Positions 15,788-20,924 of a stretch of 32,000 bases of DNA are shown in pieces. Within the stretch, counting starts at the first letter, position 1. Every line of letters starts with the position of its first letter. The stretch lies in contig CP104013.1 of NCBI GenBank assembly GCA_025839675.1, positions 5,370,001 to 5,402,000 of the forward strand. The letters are read 5' to 3'. The notes under the pieces were generated by a model. That model did no database searches and had not been told where the DNA came from. It saw nothing but the letters and a program-made list of their open reading frames with translations. The translations under genes were made by a program, and so were the position numbers. Source of the DNA: Candidatus Lokiarchaeum ossiferum (GTDB lineage Archaea; Asgardarchaeota; Lokiarchaeia; Sigyniarchaeales; Promethearchaeaceae).

Positions 15788-16432
15788 ATGAATAAAAGTA
15801 CAAATTTAGAACTAATTGAATTGAAGGGTCCTTCTTTCCTACAAAAATTCTTCGAAAAAATATCTCTTCGATCCCTATGGATTATCTCTGGTTTTGGATT
15901 TCTTTCAACCATAATTATTTATCTAATTATGGCTCCTATTGAGTTGGAATTGAAAGAAATATCACCATTTGGTGTTATGGAACTTGAATTTATGTGGACT
16001 CGTTCGCAAGCTCAGGTTATTATTGATGCTTGGGGATTGGAATACATTCAAAAGGAACTTTTTGTCACTTATCTTGATTTTGTTTTTATGCCTGCCTATG
16101 CAATTTTATTTAGCAGTTTTTCTCTTGCCATTTCCAAAAAAATAGTCCATAATAAAACTAACTTGAAAAAATCTCCAATTGTGAAATTTTTCTCCAGGAA
16201 CGGTTTAGTTATTGGATTATTTCCTTGGATCGCTGTAATATTTGATATCATTGAAAATCTAAATATTATTTATATTTTAACAAATCCTGAAATGTTTAGA
16301 AATTTTGCTCCTTTTCTAACATCTGTTTGTGCATCCATCAAGTTTTCGTTTTTACTATTGTCTATTCTATTTTCTTTGGTTGAAATTCTGGTATTTTTAT
16401 TTATGAAAAATAAAAGGATGAAAGAAATTTAG
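15788..16432 (+). CDS. hypothetical multi-pass membrane protein
   Basis: About 214 aa with several long hydrophobic segments. First ATG is at 15788 (the track start 15773 is GTG). Confidence 0.5.
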   Translation: MNKSTNLELIELKGPSFLQKFFEKISLRSLWIISGFGFLSTIIIYLIMAPIELELKEISPFGVMELEFMWTRSQAQVIIDAWGLEYIQKELFVTYLDFVFMPAYAILFSSFSLAISKKIVHNKTNLKKSPIVKFFSRNGLVIGLFPWIAVIFDIIENLNIIYILTNPEMFRNFAPFLTSVCASIKFSFLLLSILFSLVEILVFLFMKNKRMKEI

Positions 16433-16802: not shown

Positions 16803-17120
16803 CTAAAAAAATTTCCTGATATTATCTATTATTTGAAAGATTTCCGGATTTCTGATTGAATACATATTTTTTTTTCCTTCTTGGCGATATTGCAAAATTT
16901 TTCCATCTACTAAACTTTTCAAATGTTTTGAAATCGCAGCTTGAGTATAAGAAAAATGGGGTAATAAGTCACAGACACATAATTCTCCCTCGTGGAGGAG
17001 TAGAATCAATTCTATTCGAATAGGGGAAGATAGTGTTTTGCAAAATTCCGCTAATACCTTGATTTGTGGTCGAGGTAAAATATTCATCTCTAATTTGTGA
17101 GGATTTTTACATGCTGTCAT
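16803..17120 (-). CDS. arsR: ArsR/SmtB-family metal(loid)-responsive transcriptional repressor
   Basis: 105 aa with a winged-HTH layout and HEGELCVCDL, the ELCVCDL metalloid-binding motif of classical ArsR. It is the last gene of the minus-strand operon. Confidence 0.85.
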   Translation of the reverse strand: MTACKNPHKLEMNILPRPQIKVLAEFCKTLSSPIRIELILLLHEGELCVCDLLPHFSYTQAAISKHLKSLVDGKILQYRQEGKKNMYSIRNPEIFQIIDNIRKFF

Positions 17121-17135
17121 TGTTTATCATCTATT

Positions 17136-17558
17136 TTATAAACTTAAGGGATTTAACTCTTTTCCAGCACATTCTGCAATATGAAGTGCCAATTTTTCAC
17201 TTAGGGAATGATTTTTCCATTTTAAATCATGTAATGGCCCATTTTTTACTTGCTGCCATTCTGTCTCAGTGTAAAATTCTGATAATTCAATTTCCTTAAT
17301 TGGTTCCCGTCCTAAATTATTAACTGATCGGGCAGCGCATTTTTTCTGACAACCGTCAACAGTAATGCATGGGAATTTTTTCACAAAATTTTGTTCCTTC
17401 TCATCCCCAGCTAAAAATAAAGGAACACAGATTGTCGTTGTACTCCCCGGAATATACTCTGAAAGTACCTTTATTGTGGCAATACGCGAAACTGTGCCGC
17501 CTGGACATTCTTCTCCACTACAAGATAGAATTCCAATATATTTTGGTTGAATAATCAT
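17136..17558 (-). CDS. DGC-domain putative metal-binding protein (paralog 1)
   Basis: ILSCSG...TICVPL...CITVDGCQKKCA. It shares the CSG...(D/N)GCxKKC pattern with the two upstream genes. GGAGGA lies 6 nt upstream, and an ATGA overlap joins it to the upstream gene. Confidence 0.6.
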   Translation of the reverse strand: MIIQPKYIGILSCSGEECPGGTVSRIATIKVLSEYIPGSTTTICVPLFLAGDEKEQNFVKKFPCITVDGCQKKCAARSVNNLGREPIKEIELSEFYTETEWQQVKNGPLHDLKWKNHSLSEKLALHIAECAGKELNPLSL

Positions 17559-17995
17559 CGTGATTCCTCCATAAAATTGTCTATATCTGTACCGATATCC
17601 CTAGCTGTCCGTTTTGCTAATTCTAAAGCTTGCTCTCCAGGATCTAATATGCTTTTTCCTAGTTTAAGATCCCTATTTTTTACCAGAAATTTTGGCATCA
17701 AATACTTTTTTGCTACCAATCCTCCATTCTTTTCAACATTCAAGGTGGCACATTTTTTTGGACATCCATCAATCGTAAAAATAGGATGTTCTTGGATTGT
17801 GATTTTAGATTCATCATCAGCAACAACTAGTCGTGCTAAACATAACAATCGAGTATCATGTGGCTTTAAGTTTTGAGTTACTTCATAAGCAGTCCAGCGA
17901 GTAACGGTTCCCAATGCCTTTCCAATTCCGCTGCAAGGCAAAATTAAGACTTTTTTATCCTTTGATTCTTCTAATTTTTCATTATTTAATTTCAT
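17555..17995 (-). CDS. DGC-domain putative metal-binding protein (paralog 2)
   Basis: LILPCSG...LLCLARL...IFTIDGCPKKCA. ATG at 17995 has AAGGAGA 9 nt upstream (the track start 18001 is TTG). The stop is TGA at 17555-17557. Confidence 0.6.
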   Translation of the reverse strand: MKLNNEKLEESKDKKVLILPCSGIGKALGTVTRWTAYEVTQNLKPHDTRLLCLARLVVADDESKITIQEHPIFTIDGCPKKCATLNVEKNGGLVAKKYLMPKFLVKNRDLKLGKSILDPGEQALELAKRTARDIGTDIDNFMEESR

Positions 17996-18905
17996 CTTCA
18001 ATTTTCTCCTTCATGTGTGCAAAATAGTCAAGGGGGGTCATTAAATCTTCTAATTCTGTATCGAATGTGGATGGTTCTATCACACAAATCCATCCATTAG
18101 TATATGGTTCTCTATTAATTATATCTGGTTCTTCAATCAAAGCCTTATTTACTTGAACCACATTTCCAGTAAAAGGAGAGAGTAGATCAATTACTGTTTT
18201 TGTTGATTCGATTGAAGCTAAAGATTCCAATTGCTCCGCTTTTGAGCCGATTTCAGGTAAATCAATTATCACAATATCACTCATATTTTGTTGTAAATAA
18301 TCCGAGATTCCAACTACTGCCTTTCCATCTTGCATATAGACCCAAGCATCATTCCAAGTGAAATATAGCCCTGATTTATTATTGGGGACTTTGAACTCAA
18401 ATTTTGCTTGAAGATATTTTTGCCATTGCTCGTAATTGGGTAAGAATTGGAATTTCTCATCAAAAATATCTTTTTTTGGTGATACTTGCGGATACAATTT
18501 CAAATAAATTTCTTTTGCGGTTTCAGTGGCAATATTTAGTTCATCACCTGTTAAACTTGTTTTACCTTTTGGGGAGAATCCTTTTCCCTTTATTGATTGA
18601 GGTATATTGAAAACAAAATCTGGTCTCAATTCTTTAGTTTCACATAATTTTGAAACACATTTTTTTCCGCATCCATTTAGAACACATATCGATTTGTTTT
18701 TTAAAAGATCTTGGACATTTTCTTCTTCTACAGAGATTTGAGCAAATGATGGTTCAATTACTATATTTTTTGAATGTTCTCTACCCATTTGCACTAATTC
18801 CAGTGCAATTGATGTGCTTAATTGACCTGTTAATCTCTCTATTCCGCTACATGGTATGATTAGTATGTTTTCTTGATTATGGGTTATATTTAATTCGTTT
18901 TGCAT
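17982..18905 (-). CDS. fusion protein: N-terminal DGC-like domain plus C-terminal glycine-cleavage-H-like lipoyl-carrier domain
   Basis: N-terminal motifs are LIIPCSG...CVLNGCGKKCVSKLC. The C-terminal part is collinear with GcvH (VVGISDYLQQNMSDIVIIDLPEIGSKAEQLESLASIESTKTVIDLLSPFTGNVVQVN...EPYTNGWICVIE). The lipoyl-Lys position is retained (K236, 18198-18200). Confidence 0.75.
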   Translation of the reverse strand: MQNELNITHNQENILIIPCSGIERLTGQLSTSIALELVQMGREHSKNIVIEPSFAQISVEEENVQDLLKNKSICVLNGCGKKCVSKLCETKELRPDFVFNIPQSIKGKGFSPKGKTSLTGDELNIATETAKEIYLKLYPQVSPKKDIFDEKFQFLPNYEQWQKYLQAKFEFKVPNNKSGLYFTWNDAWVYMQDGKAVVGISDYLQQNMSDIVIIDLPEIGSKAEQLESLASIESTKTVIDLLSPFTGNVVQVNKALIEEPDIINREPYTNGWICVIEPSTFDTELEDLMTPLDYFAHMKEKIEDEIK

Positions 18906-18919
18906 ATATATTCACCAAA

Positions 18920-19240
18920 TTATTTCGAGAGTGTTTTTTTTTTAATTTCTGCTTTAATGGATTTAATTTGTTTCAAAACTTCCTTTTTCGGTTGAAAAAT
19001 CATAGCTCCTTCGATAGGACACATTTTTAAGCATGCCTGGCAGAAAACCACACAATTTTTTGGTTTAACTACCACAATCTTTCCATCCTTTTTCTCATAT
19101 ACTCCATGAGCGCAAAAAGTTACACAATCTCCGCAATTATTGCATTTTTCATAATCAATTATGGGAAACCAATCTATTTGACCTCTTGGTACTCCCATGA
19201 ACTTGTGAGGGTTTTTCATATTACGACTTGCTTCACTCAT
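18920..19240 (-). CDS. 2x[4Fe-4S] ferredoxin-like protein
   Basis: CNNCGDCVTFC and CVVFCQACLKMCP cluster motifs. ATG at 19240 overlaps the upstream gene's TGA by 8 nt (the track start 19243 is TTG). Confidence 0.8.
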   Translation of the reverse strand: MSEASRNMKNPHKFMGVPRGQIDWFPIIDYEKCNNCGDCVTFCAHGVYEKKDGKIVVVKPKNCVVFCQACLKMCPIEGAMIFQPKKEVLKQIKSIKAEIKKKTLSK

Positions 19241-19622
19241 CAATTATACCCCATTCTTCCAATTGTTTTTCTATTTCATCGAAAGCTTCATCAGTAGTCA
19301 TGTTACGAACATCTAGAGGTTTGGCCATTTTGCTAAAATCAAGATTATGTTTTTTAAAAGCAGGTGACATCAGTTTCATCTGCATATTTGGTGAACAACC
19401 TGCTATAAAATAGTGCATATCTGGATCTATTGAATTAGTTTTCAATAAATCATCCAAAAAGCGATCTCCATCAATTTCACATAGTTGTGGATGTACTATT
19501 GCCCATTCTACAGGAAGGGCTAATCGAACTTGATTTATTAAATCCCATACGTTCATGGTTGCGAACCCCGGACAATCGCCGGTACAAACGCAGAGAATGA
19601 ATCCTACTCGTGGTTTTGCCAT
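19233..19622 (-). CDS. stand-alone Cys-rich domain protein resembling the internal VCxCG...ACSP...N(I/V)R domain of heterodisulfide reductase HdrA
   Basis: GFILCVCTGDCPG...PQLCEIDG...YFIAGCSPNMQMKLMSPAFKKHNLDF...LDVRN is collinear with my recollection of the HdrA segment IGVFxCHCGxNI...CS...VVVAxCxPRxHExxF...GLN...NIR. ATG is at 19622 (a GTG at 19631 is also possible). First gene of the operon. Confidence 0.5.
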   Translation of the reverse strand: MAKPRVGFILCVCTGDCPGFATMNVWDLINQVRLALPVEWAIVHPQLCEIDGDRFLDDLLKTNSIDPDMHYFIAGCSPNMQMKLMSPAFKKHNLDFSKMAKPLDVRNMTTDEAFDEIEKQLEEWGIIDE

Positions 19623-19653
19623 TGTTTTCACTTCTACTTAGTAAAAAAATTGG

Positions 19654-19746
19654 AAATAATATAACCAAAATGTTATCATAACCATTTGGTTATCATTACT
19701 TTTTAGTTATGTATTCTTCCTTAAAAACATTTTTATCATCATAACC
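19654..19746. promoter_or_regulatory. divergent promoter/operator region with a 33-bp near-perfect palindrome and a repeated half-site
   Basis: 19661-19693 reads ATAACCAAAatGTTAT-C-ATAACcaTTTGGTTAT, with 14 of 16 arm positions complementary and the centre at 19677. A related TTATCATCATAACC sits at 19733-19746. The minus-strand TATA-like TATATTATTT (19654-19663) overlaps the left arm. The plus-strand TATA-like GTATAAAA is at 19773-19780. Confidence 0.4.
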
Positions 19747-19815: not shown

Positions 19816-20031
19816 ATGGGTAATATTTCCTATGAAAGTACGATCATTTGTCCCCAATGTGGAAATTCTGAAACCCATATTCTAACTGAAAACGCATGAA
19901 ATTTGGCGATCTCCTGTGACAATTGTAAAACAATCATCCGTGGAAAACCAAATAAACATGGGTGAACTTGAGTTTTTTGTAGTTATGGTAGTTCTCCATG
20001 AGTAGGGATTCAGAAACAAACAAATAAGTAA
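19816..20031 (+). CDS. small Cys/Sec-rich metal-binding protein with four predicted selenocysteine (UGA) codons; GDCCVxC-type
   Basis: ATG 19816 to TAA 20029-20031 gives 71 residues: MGNISYESTIICPQCGNSETHILTENA-U-NLAISCDNCKTIIRGKPNKHG-U-T-U-VFCSYGSSP-U-VGIQKQTNK. In-frame TGAs are at 19897, 19963, 19969 and 19999, and there is no TAA/TAG. The TGAs fall where the remembered family consensus has Cys. A SECIS-like hairpin follows. The ORF track misses this gene. Confidence 0.6.
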
Positions 20032-20044
20032 TGCATCGCAAAAA

Positions 20045-20089
20045 ATGCAATGAAAACTACTGGTAAACCTTTGGCAGTAGTTGGAGCAT
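20045..20089 (+). promoter_or_regulatory. SECIS-like k-turn hairpin in the 3' UTR of the UGA-containing ORF
   Basis: AUGC (20045-48) pairs with GCAU (20086-89). A 3-nt bulge AAU follows. Tandem sheared pairs are G52.A85 and A53.G84 (5' AUGA / 3' GA). An 8-bp perfect helix joins AACUACUG (20055-62) to CAGUAGUU (20075-82). The 12-nt apical loop GUAAACCUUUGG contains AAA. Confidence 0.5.
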
Positions 20090-20126
20090 AAAGAAGTGAA
20101 AAAAATGTGAATTTTGGATTTTCTAT

Positions 20127-20924
20127 TCAAAATTTATAAATACGTGCAAATAAATCATCTTCACGTGGAAAAAGCATGGCATCTTTTGCTATTTCTTCAT
20201 TCGTAAAGTCAACTGGGGCGTTTTCTATCATCACAAAGGGTGTTTGTTCATCACATTCTCCCATTACAAGGTGGGCGGCATCGGTAAGTTGATCTGCTAA
20301 AGCACGTTGTGTCCATTCCATTTCATGGCCGTATAAATCACATTTACCAATACAATCCATAACTGGATTGAAACCATCAACTCCGATAGCAACTCCCACG
20401 ATCCCCTTTCTAAGTGGCTGTACTCGAGAATCGGATATAATAGTGCCAAAATTTGTGAGATGATATATTTCTTTAATTTTCTGAGAGATTTGTCTTGCTG
20501 TTTCAAAAGGTTCTGTTGGCCAAGGTGAATAATGGTCGCCCGGTCCAGAGTTTGACTTGTCAATTCCTCCATTGGCAATTAAAACTCCATTCTTTTCGGT
20601 AAATAGCATCTTTGGGATTCCTCCAATGATTTGGTCCGATTCATCCAAGATAATTTGAACAAAACGTGGATCCATAGTATATTCCTTAGCTAGATTTTTT
20701 GCCTTCTCACTTATCTCAGTTATCTGATTAAGATCTATTATTTTTCCTTGAGATGTGGCTACAAGTGTCTCAGCAATGACTAAAACCGAATTCTCTTGAG
20801 GAAATAAATTATTCGATTTGAATGTTTCTTGAAGAACCTTGATTAAATCTTCATTCTTTTGAATAATATGGGTTGTTTTTAATGCTGTTATTTTCATTAG
20901 TTTCTTTCTCCAATTTTTTTTCAT
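20127..20924 (-). CDS. cofE: CofE-like gamma-glutamyl ligase (coenzyme F420-0:L-glutamate ligase family)
   Basis: VLVIAETLVATSQGK, GVLIANGGIDKSN and ISDSRVQPLRKG resemble CofE. The ATG at 20924 overlaps the upstream TGA (ATGA). An alternative start is M10 (20897). Confidence 0.75.
   Translation of the reverse strand: MKKNWRKKLMKITALKTTHIIQKNEDLIKVLQETFKSNNLFPQENSVLVIAETLVATSQGKIIDLNQITEISEKAKNLAKEYTMDPRFVQIILDESDQIIGGIPKMLFTEKNGVLIANGGIDKSNSGPGDHYSPWPTEPFETARQISQKIKEIYHLTNFGTIISDSRVQPLRKGIVGVAIGVDGFNPVMDCIGKCDLYGHEMEWTQRALADQLTDAAHLVMGECDEQTPFVMIENAPVDFTNEEIAKDAMLFPREDDLFARIYKF

Follow-up and report, generated by a model that had tools for sequence, protein, structure and literature searches.

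Known systems and the locus under study

Prokaryotic selenoprotein families contain one selenocysteine (Sec) or, in a few cases, two to three, according to a 2026 review in which the family NF041374 is listed as 'Hypothetical protein GOS_B' with a single Sec (PMC13188914). GOS_B is the literature name of the NCBIfam family 'GDCCVxC domain-containing (seleno)protein', and in the study of Zhang and Gladyshev in 2008 it comprised 11 Sec and 125 Cys forms of unknown function, with Sec insertion sequence (SECIS) elements of the bacterial type that lie within the coding sequence (PMC2398784). The SECIS element of the Lokiarchaeota, lokiSECIS, is built of an AUGA, a stem of 9 bp, a loop of 11 nt with an A-rich beginning and a final G, and a GA; it lies close to the stop codon and one such element serves up to six UGAs in published Lokiarchaeota genes (PMC4989117). 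For the Asgard archaea in general an upper stem of 7-15 bp with at most two mismatches (9 bp being typical) and a loop of 8-20 nt (typically 11) have been used as criteria (PMC11227280, PMC4989117), and a loop start of G[U/G]AAA has been reported as an Asgard variant (PMC11227280). Here we describe an open reading frame (ORF) of 71 codons with four in-frame UGAs in a 32,000-nt stretch of the genome of Candidatus Lokiarchaeum ossiferum (contig CP104013.1, positions 5,370,001 to 5,402,000, hereafter the window), which, judged from its sequence, is very probably a bona fide multi-Sec selenoprotein gene of this archaeon.

The explanation that is proposed for the locus runs as follows. The mRNA would carry the four in-frame UGAs and a single lokiSECIS 3' of the TAA stop, the hairpin would recruit the Sec-specific elongation machinery, and all four UGAs would be read as Sec. 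The product would be a 71-residue member of the GDCCVxC (NF041374, GOS_B) family with nine invariant thiol/selenol positions, whose Sec-rich site would most likely bind a soft metal ion (Hg, Cu or the like) with high affinity or hand it on, with Sec in place of Cys raising the affinity or reactivity of the metal site. Taken as a whole, with its four-Sec gene, its one lokiSECIS and its soft-metal site, this explanation is considered highly probable; its functional part is graded separately below.

Reading frame and family membership

From the ATG at 19816 the + strand reads MGNISYESTIICPQCGNSETHILTENA-stop-NLAISCDNCKTIIRGKPNKHG-stop-T-stop-VFCSYGSSP-stop-VGIQKQTNK-stop, ending at the TAA at 20029-20031 with no in-frame TAA or TAG. 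The frame, the positions of its four TGAs (Table 1) and its TAA end are exactly as given in the initial annotation, which had also called the lack of TAA and TAG unusual; at the window's GC content of 33.4% a run of 71 codons free of both would arise by chance in ~2% of cases (own arithmetic). TGA serves as an ordinary stop in the window, where it ends 7 of 30 long ORFs, including all four genes that the annotation had named in arguing against a reassigned TGA; several of these TGA-ended ORFs encode proteins identical to deposited ones of L. ossiferum, and the reassigned-TGA reading is ruled out. The gene appears to be unannotated, as had been stated, because the GenBank accessions of the flanking genes are consecutive (UYP48293 to UYP48296, the last being CofE), with no number left for the Sec ORF, and because gene callers run on the Logan and NCBI contigs called nothing between cofE and the flpD-like gene. 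The correspondence with the public record is close: three deposited proteins of L. ossiferum B-35, a DGC-GcvH fusion (UYP48293.1), GyrB (UYP48299.1) and GyrA (UYP48300.1), are identical to those of the window, and the CofE of the window falls in the same 90%-identity cluster as UYP48296.1.

The initial annotation had pointed to a family named for a GDCCVxC domain. The family exists, and the window protein translated with Cys in place of Sec scores 59 bits against NF041374 (curated cutoff 40) over all 58 model positions (1-58); with the four TGA positions masked as X the score is 46.5 bits, still above the cutoff. A word-index search with the Cys-substituted protein alone returned no homolog. 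Homologs were found via a probe alignment seeded with consensus variants, the synthetic rows of which were not used as evidence, and this search yielded real proteins in at least 8000 clusters, mostly bacterial, that were 38-52% identical to the window protein; many of these clusters carry the NCBI name GDCCVxC (seleno)protein.

Alignment with 25 family proteins placed codons 28, 52 and 62 on invariant Cys columns, in agreement with what had been claimed for them, and codon 50 on the Asp of GDCC, which had likewise been claimed. This last assignment stood in the small alignment and did not survive the addition of 16 Asgard sequences, when the U-x-U of the window protein came to lie opposite the bacterial C-C with a one-residue insertion; all four Sec thus fall on invariant Cys columns, and Cys or Sec is aligned at each of the four positions. 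In this larger alignment the invariant columns are occupied by C12, C15, U28, C34, C37, U50, U52, C55 and U62, and the chance that four stops among 71 codons would all fall within nine such columns is C(9,4)/C(71,4), or ~1.3e-4 (own arithmetic). The motif that gives the family its name, G-D-C-C-V-x-C, reads G-U-T-U-V-F-C in the window protein and D-U-T-U-V-F-C in a relative (locus L005), with V-x-C kept, the CC pair split and the Asp not kept. The motif is a descriptor; membership of the family is decided by the hidden Markov model, whose cutoff the predicted protein passes.

Table 1. Features of the Sec gene and its surroundings, in window coordinates
Feature	Position	Strand	Evidence or remarks
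Predicted four-Sec GDCCVxC-family coding sequence	19816..20031	+	translation, NF041374 score, homolog identity, orthologs, codon-position bias
Predicted Sec codon 28 (UGA)	19897..19899	+	invariant Cys of family 'DAC' position; TGA in all orthologs
Predicted Sec codon 50 (UGA), first of U-x-U	19963..19965	+	first Cys of bacterial CC pair; preceding Asp in smaller alignment
Predicted Sec codon 52 (UGA)	19969..19971	+	second Cys of CC pair; Sec position of bacterial GDCU members
Predicted Sec codon 62 (UGA)	19999..20001	+	invariant Cys of 'PCPP'; 51 nt 5' of SECIS AUGA
lokiSECIS-type hairpin (eukaryote-like, type I)	20044..20091	+	fold, pattern, covariance model, covariation
SECIS lower stem, 3 bp	20046-48/20086-88	+	fold
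SECIS AUGA	20050-53	+	
SECIS upper stem, AAACUACUG / CAGUAGUUG	20054-62/20075-83	+	8 bp plus A.G at base
SECIS apical loop, GUAAACCUUUGG	20063-74	+	12 nt
SECIS GA	20084-85	+	
TATA-like box, TATAAAA	19774..19780	+	36-42 nt 5' of ATG; block TTATTCGGTATAA kept in L005, flanks diverged
Near-perfect palindrome, arms ATAACCAAAATGTTAT / ATAACCATTTGGTTAT	19661..19693		16-nt arms, 88% complementary; kept in L005
Divergent six-gene operon	16803-19631	-	MvhD/FlpD-like, ferredoxin, DGC-GcvH-like fusion, DGC, DGC, ArsR/SmtB
ArsR/SmtB regulator	16803-17120	-	76.8 bits (cutoff 55)

The SECIS element

The close spacing of the UGAs had led to the prediction of an archaeal/eukaryotic-type SECIS in the 3' untranslated region (UTR), and a hairpin that fits both lokiSECIS and the type I Asgard criteria (eukaryotic SECIS-like) in core, stem, loop and placement after the stop was found there. 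It begins 18 nt after the TAA stop, within a range of -4 to 42 nt among orthologs, and its loop, GUAAACCUUUGG, has AAA after GU and G at its last position. The pattern AUGA/9/11-12/9/GA has a single match on the two strands of the window, against an expectation of ~0.25, and by chance it would begin no more than 60 nt from a given stop with a probability of ~2e-4. A covariance model (R1) that was trained on four non-ossiferum orthologs only gave 20044-20091, with 28.8 bits and E 4.9e-4, as its sole significant match in the window; its second-best match scored 18 bits. That second match, at 15823-15872 on the - strand (E 0.12), has GAGA for AUGA, lies just upstream of a hydrolase gene and was judged to be due to chance.

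It is also clear from comparison of orthologs that the helix has been maintained by compensating changes. In 16 distinct ortholog sequences 90.9% of the cells of the helix are paired, versus 46-64% when the partners are slid, and double changes were found at 11 of 11 helix pairs; none of 500 shuffles reached the observed values. A version with six sequences gave 93% paired cells and covariation at 11 of 12 pairs. The AUGA and GA are invariant in all 16 sequences. Between the window and L005, U61-A76 is replaced by C-G and the A54.G83 mismatch by A-U. Twenty orthologous loci were examined and showed a geometry of 9/11 or 9/12, with a type II-like variant in locus L018, and many of their loops have the form AAAAA...AG. 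In L018 a further weak match (1005-1050, - strand) to a second model, R2, at 15 bits and E 0.13, has an AUGA...GA core and might mark another selenoprotein gene.

The distance between UGA and SECIS is constrained as well. In 19 of the 20 orthologs 44-54 nt separate the last Sec-UGA from the AUGA downstream of it; the UGAs of the window lie 51-153 nt upstream of the SECIS, and across the family UGAs 44-180 nt upstream are kept as sense codons. In two metagenomic orthologs (L028 and L037, contigs Ga0114919_10010869 and Ga0114925_10017267) the SECIS overlaps the end of the coding sequence and the UGA of the AUGA core itself serves as stop codon (..ATT GAA TGA AAT..), so that a UGA at the SECIS core is evidently not recoded.

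Conservation of the frame

Orthologs were sought with IUPAC DNA patterns designed around the TGAs, in genome contigs and then in metagenomes, and five further matches in each of the two scans were discarded after translation as due to chance. The genome scan revealed four-TGA orthologs in Promethearchaeum syntrophicum MK-D1, in a Promethearchaeum sp., in two Promethearchaeota metagenome-assembled genomes (MAGs) and in one 'uncultured archaeon', and also six members from bacteria, of which five have a single Sec, in G-D-C-U-V-x-C, and the sixth, from Sideroxydans (L012), has G-D-Y-U. The metagenome scan added ~17 four-TGA orthologs on low-GC sediment contigs. All four TGAs are kept in ~25 orthologous Lokiarchaeia loci, among them the syntenic locus of the second closed L. 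ossiferum genome (CP163304.1; L004) and that of a more distant relative (L005/L006). The comparison with related loci that had been suggested as a check gave TGA at all four codons and no decay. The orthologs are only ~40-50% identical in protein sequence and yet have the same four TGAs, with no frameshift and no TAA or TAG; codon 51, between the central pair, may encode T, S, P, A, D, N or R, and the TGAs on either side of it are constant in all orthologs.

One of the metagenomic orthologs, an MK-D1-like sequence at ~1400-1600 of contig Ga0209013_10096572 (L039), has one more in-frame TGA, the fifth, at Cys34 of the zinc ribbon (..RL-U-KSC..); it is a variant that either has five Sec or arose in sequencing or assembly.

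The pattern of substitution is that of a single coding frame from start to TAA. Over codons 1-68 the window and L005 differ by 14 synonymous and 5 nonsynonymous codon changes, and by 3, 2 and 16 differences at the three codon positions. Synonymous changes occur after each TGA, including the last, where the change at V63 is synonymous and I65 and Q66 are conserved. In 24 ortholog pairs a third-position bias was found in each segment that separates two TGAs or follows the last (13/8/72 from U50 to U62), and the ratio of synonymous to nonsynonymous changes was 117:71 and 62:20 in the two inter-TGA segments and 18:20 over the four codons that follow U62.

The selenocysteine trait in L. ossiferum

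The supplementary data of Huang et al. (2024) list Sec-containing SelD, FrhA, FrhD, HdrA and three PrxL proteins for MK-D1 (PMC11227280); L. ossiferum appears in neither the text nor the supplementary data of that survey. With the MK-D1 SelD sequence as a query the selD of L. ossiferum was located, its product being annotated as a 312-aa 'Selenide, water dikinase' (P0148). At the selD locus (L026 5869-6995, Logan SRR22273277_2220) the frame runs on upstream through a TGA, reading MSSYNEIIKNYKLTEKCSMHG-U-KCK..., and this TGA stands at the canonical ...SMHG-U-KCK... (HG-U-xCK) site. The deposited 312-aa SelD is thus N-terminally truncated, an annotation error in the public record.

The selD gene is followed, 14 nt after its stop, by a SECIS of its own at L026 6948-6995, composed of AUGA / GGAGAAACA / AUAAACCUUUGG / UGUUUCUUU / GA. 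Both this element and that of the window have the form AUGA/9/12/9/GA and their loops, AUAAACCUUUGG and GUAAACCUUUGG, are identical at 11 of 12 positions, whereas the stems are unrelated; the comparison rests on geometry and on this loop identity. The loop UAAACCUUUGG common to the Sec gene and selD predicts a species-specific SECIS signature. ARAGORN detected no tRNA of any kind, tRNA-Sec included, in the 32-kb window, a result that is uninformative for the genome.

Protein architecture, genomic context and proposed role

The nine thiol/selenol positions very likely divide into a zinc ribbon (12/15/34/37) with a structural look and a second, functional site (28/50/52/55/62). The ribbon positions stay Cys in the Asgard proteins, position 34 of L039 excepted, and the other five invariant positions include all four Sec. 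The N-terminal CPxCG...(~18 aa)...CxxC half resembles the TFIIS/Rpb9 zinc ribbon, with a weak match to that of Rpb9 (1QYP, E 0.008); the C-terminal half with its five Cys/Sec positions is without a solved counterpart, and over the whole domain the likeness is below significance. An AlphaFold2 model of a bacterial homolog is confident, with a pLDDT (predicted local distance difference test) score of 88.4, and a Foldseek search of the PDB with it gave no significant match that would confirm a division into two sites, the best (E 0.39) being to generic zinc ribbons.

Seven bacterial loci that encode Cys forms are annotated, and in 4/7 the gene adjoins metal-resistance genes on the same strand: merT-merP-merA, merR with merT-merP, copC-copD with a MerR-regulated P-type ATPase, and a heavy-metal ATPase with a multicopper oxidase. 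Next to two single-Sec bacterial members are a CDF efflux gene and an ArsC-like gene. A soft-metal role, in binding or transfer, is suggested because the bacterial relatives commonly sit in mer or cop clusters, and Sec substitutes exactly the non-ribbon thiols of this mer/cop-associated protein. The link is circumstantial, since the gene neighbourhood is not conserved among the Asgard orthologs and the remaining three of the seven bacterial contexts are uninformative. Metal binding by the Sec-rich protein is given about an even chance. Rather doubtful is the more specific proposal that U28, U50, U52 and U62 converge with Cys55 on a natural, near all-selenolate metal centre beside a plain all-Cys zinc ribbon, in a protein peculiar to the Lokiarchaeia, which would act as an ultra-high-affinity trap or chaperone for Hg/Cu-class ions or as a selenium store. 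If true, the protein would be a compact natural test bed for processive recoding with one eukaryote-like SECIS and UGAs one codon apart and ~44 nt from the SECIS.

Divergent from the Sec gene in the window is a six-gene operon (Table 1), syntenic with it only within the genus Lokiarchaeum. Its MvhD/FlpD-like protein is a Cys form (CVCTGDC), and the best NCBIfam match of its 2x[4Fe-4S] ferredoxin is HgcB, at 37.7 bits and below the cutoff. The palindrome lies in the intergenic region between the two and is a candidate operator for the ArsR/SmtB regulator, although any link to the Sec gene is speculative. The TATAAAA upstream of the ATG is proposed, with low confidence, as a candidate archaeal promoter. 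On the other side, the CofE ORF (20127-20924, - strand) is 265 aa long in the window versus 256 aa as deposited, the difference being one of start-codon choice only. In another genome, Promethearchaeota archaeon DZ2M.219, three genes lie upstream of the ortholog on the same strand (L021 889-3354). One encodes a fusion of a CpaM-like methyltransferase with an HgcA-like corrinoid domain (HgcAB_like 166 bits, HgcA 153 bits, both below cutoff), and the others an HgcB-like ferredoxin that terminates in CNCC (55 bits, likewise below cutoff) and a Cys-rich protein of 142 aa; a mercury or corrinoid link of these neighbours is possible.

A very high Sec fraction is a hallmark of SelP-type selenium carriers, and its occurrence here raises the possibility that the protein is a real four-Sec protein that does not bind metal, serving either as a SelP-like store or carrier of selenium or as a selenol/thiol redox relay for the FlpD-like/ferredoxin/DGC-GcvH-like operon. 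Most selenoproteins are redox proteins (PMC13188914), the divergent operon encodes MvhD/FlpD-like, ferredoxin and GcvH-like proteins, and metal-specific genes mark neither the Asgard neighbourhoods nor three of the seven bacterial contexts. Against this, homologs in the other four bacterial contexts belong to mer or cop clusters with which they share a strand, the vicinal CC pair with its further Cys is like the ligand sets of Hg and Cu and unlike a CxxC redox box, and the association with the FlpD operon is confined to a single genus. A redox or carrier function is thus judged unlikely, though by no means negligible, and soft-metal binding or hand-off is preferred.

Other readings of the UGA codons

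Several observations weigh against the interpretation of the ORF as a four-Sec gene. Its expression and the insertion of Sec, and with them the presence of selenium in the product, are deduced from the DNA, and selD is the only part of the Sec machinery that has been verified in L. ossiferum. The Rfam SECIS families (RF00031, RF01988-RF01991) gave no match at 20044-20091 in a scan of the window, and the window loop starts with GUAAA, not with the AAAAA typical of published Lokiarchaeota SECIS. The models trained on the family did not detect the selD SECIS significantly, R1 giving no match and R2 placing it top in its locus at 14.3 bits and E 0.19, so that the models must be regarded as family-biased. 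Finally, at 361-645 of locus L022, from the MAG Promethearchaeum sp. CSMAG_2442, the four TGAs and the SECIS are kept and the start codon and the first CxxC Cys are replaced by unrelated sequence, this being either a truncated copy or a MAG misassembly. The sole Rfam match in the window scan, to SECIS_5 at 20158-20209 on the - strand, was attributed to chance (19.9 bits against a gathering cutoff of 50, E 0.52).

The first of these points would allow the UGAs to be read through as Cys or Trp by near-cognate decoding, with the hairpin merely stimulating it. This is improbable on several grounds: every UGA stands exactly on a Cys column, one of the positions is also UGA in bacterial members that use the in-CDS (coding sequence) SECIS system (PMC2398784), the AUGA...GA kink-turn core and the geometry are those of the documented lokiSECIS, and nearly the same loop follows a canonical selenoprotein gene, selD, in the same genome. 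Moreover, Cys is only one base away (TGT or TGC), yet TGA is found at all four sites in ~25 loci.

Still less probable is an end to translation at the first UGA (19897), which would release a 27-residue peptide and leave the downstream part as a non-coding RNA or regulatory element. TGA is indeed a normal stop in this genome, and neither the gene callers nor GenBank place a gene here, but the later segments evolve as coding DNA in the same frame, as their third-position bias indicates, the downstream part encodes the most conserved stretch of the family (xVFCSYGxxPx..IQ), and the 27-aa product would hold only half a zinc ribbon. The antisense ORF at 19882-20130, which had been called spurious, is interrupted by stops and indels in L005 and is not conserved there. 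Least credible of all is the decay into a pseudogene of a bacterial GDCCVxC gene acquired by horizontal transfer, for although TGT or TGC becomes TGA by one base change, the L022 copy is 5'-truncated and the family is absent from both the seven Asgard families of Huang et al. 2024 (PMC11227280) and the archaeal families named in the 2026 review (PMC13188914), the four TGAs and an intact frame occur in distinct sequences from at least six genomes and ~17 metagenome contigs, under purifying selection and with a covarying SECIS at a fixed distance. The conservation of the TGAs, the third-position bias and the broken antisense ORF together render the pseudogene, antisense-gene and early-termination readings untenable, and a four-Sec gene served by one lokiSECIS is the reading taken forward.

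Comparison with known systems

Both the protein family and the lokiSECIS mechanism are already known. A literature search on 'GDCCVxC' returned no papers, and no paper from 2024-2026 was found that reports an Asgard member. What is new, relative to the literature searched, is an archaeal member of the family, the presence of four (occasionally five) Sec in ~70 residues with a U-x-U, the predicted decoding of all UGAs of a GDCCVxC gene by one 3'-UTR SECIS at distances of 44-156 nt, and the presence of the gene in both cultured Asgard species. The GDCCVxC/GOS_B family appears not to have been recorded in archaea before, and it would be the eighth Asgard selenoprotein family, seven having been recognised in the dedicated survey (PMC11227280). 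One likely reason why it was overlooked is that the four UGAs cut the ORF into fragments of <30 aa. As the gene is found in both cultured species that were checked, L. ossiferum and P. syntrophicum MK-D1, the proposal is directly testable.

Described members of NF041374/GOS_B share with the window protein the nine invariant Cys/Sec columns and the CPxCG...CxxC...V-F-C-S-Y-G...IQ core, and the bacterial Sec members share with it a Sec where the CC pair has its second Cys. The described members are bacterial or metagenomic and have one Sec and an in-CDS SECIS, whereas the Lokiarchaeia lineage is archaeal, with four Sec (five in one contig) and a 3'-UTR SECIS; in its proteins the CC pair is split to U-x-U, the Asp of GDCC is gone and the C-terminal CC tail that is common in bacteria is absent. 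The exceptional Sec density that the initial annotation ascribed to the protein is a fair description, given that the 2026 review allows one Sec for this family, and four Sec in 71 residues, or five in the one contig, exceeds the ceiling of '2-3 Sec' given there for prokaryotic families (PMC13188914).

Sec is known in place of metal-ligand Cys in other proteins that are tied to the handling of Hg or heavy metals (PMC13188914). These belong to unrelated families and have one or two Sec, and the metal link of the window protein is suggested by the mer/cop context of its bacterial relatives. Among multi-Sec proteins, SelL (with UxxU) and SelP have closely spaced UGAs and a 3'-UTR kink-turn SECIS, and SelP has a high Sec content and a proposed role in metal or selenium handling. 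SelL and SelP have been cited as multi-Sec precedents (PMC4989117). Neither is related to the window protein in sequence or fold, and SelP is a secreted eukaryotic glycoprotein with two SECIS elements, whereas the window protein would be a 71-aa cytosolic archaeal protein of zinc-ribbon type.

The closest likeness in mechanism is to the multi-Sec genes of the Lokiarchaeota that depend on lokiSECIS, namely HdrA-VhuD, PrxL and VhuU (Mariotti et al. 2016, PMC4989117; Huang et al. 2024, PMC11227280), with which the window gene shares the core, the ~9-bp stem and the 11-12-nt loop ending in G. In these genes, as in that of the window, one SECIS just after the stop goes together with several UGAs, and a UGA near or inside the SECIS is a stop. 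The window gene differs from them in its protein family, in its loop start (GUAAA, not AAAAA), in having its UGAs within ~150 nt of the SECIS and in a far higher density of Sec, the multi-Sec HdrA of Lokiarchaeota having up to five Sec positions in ~660 aa as against four in 71 aa here. The family thus places tight comparative constraints on lokiSECIS, in the permitted distances of the UGAs, in the use of a core UGA as a stop and in the tolerance of U-x-U, and these constraints bear on the evolution of the eukaryotic-type Sec insertion system.

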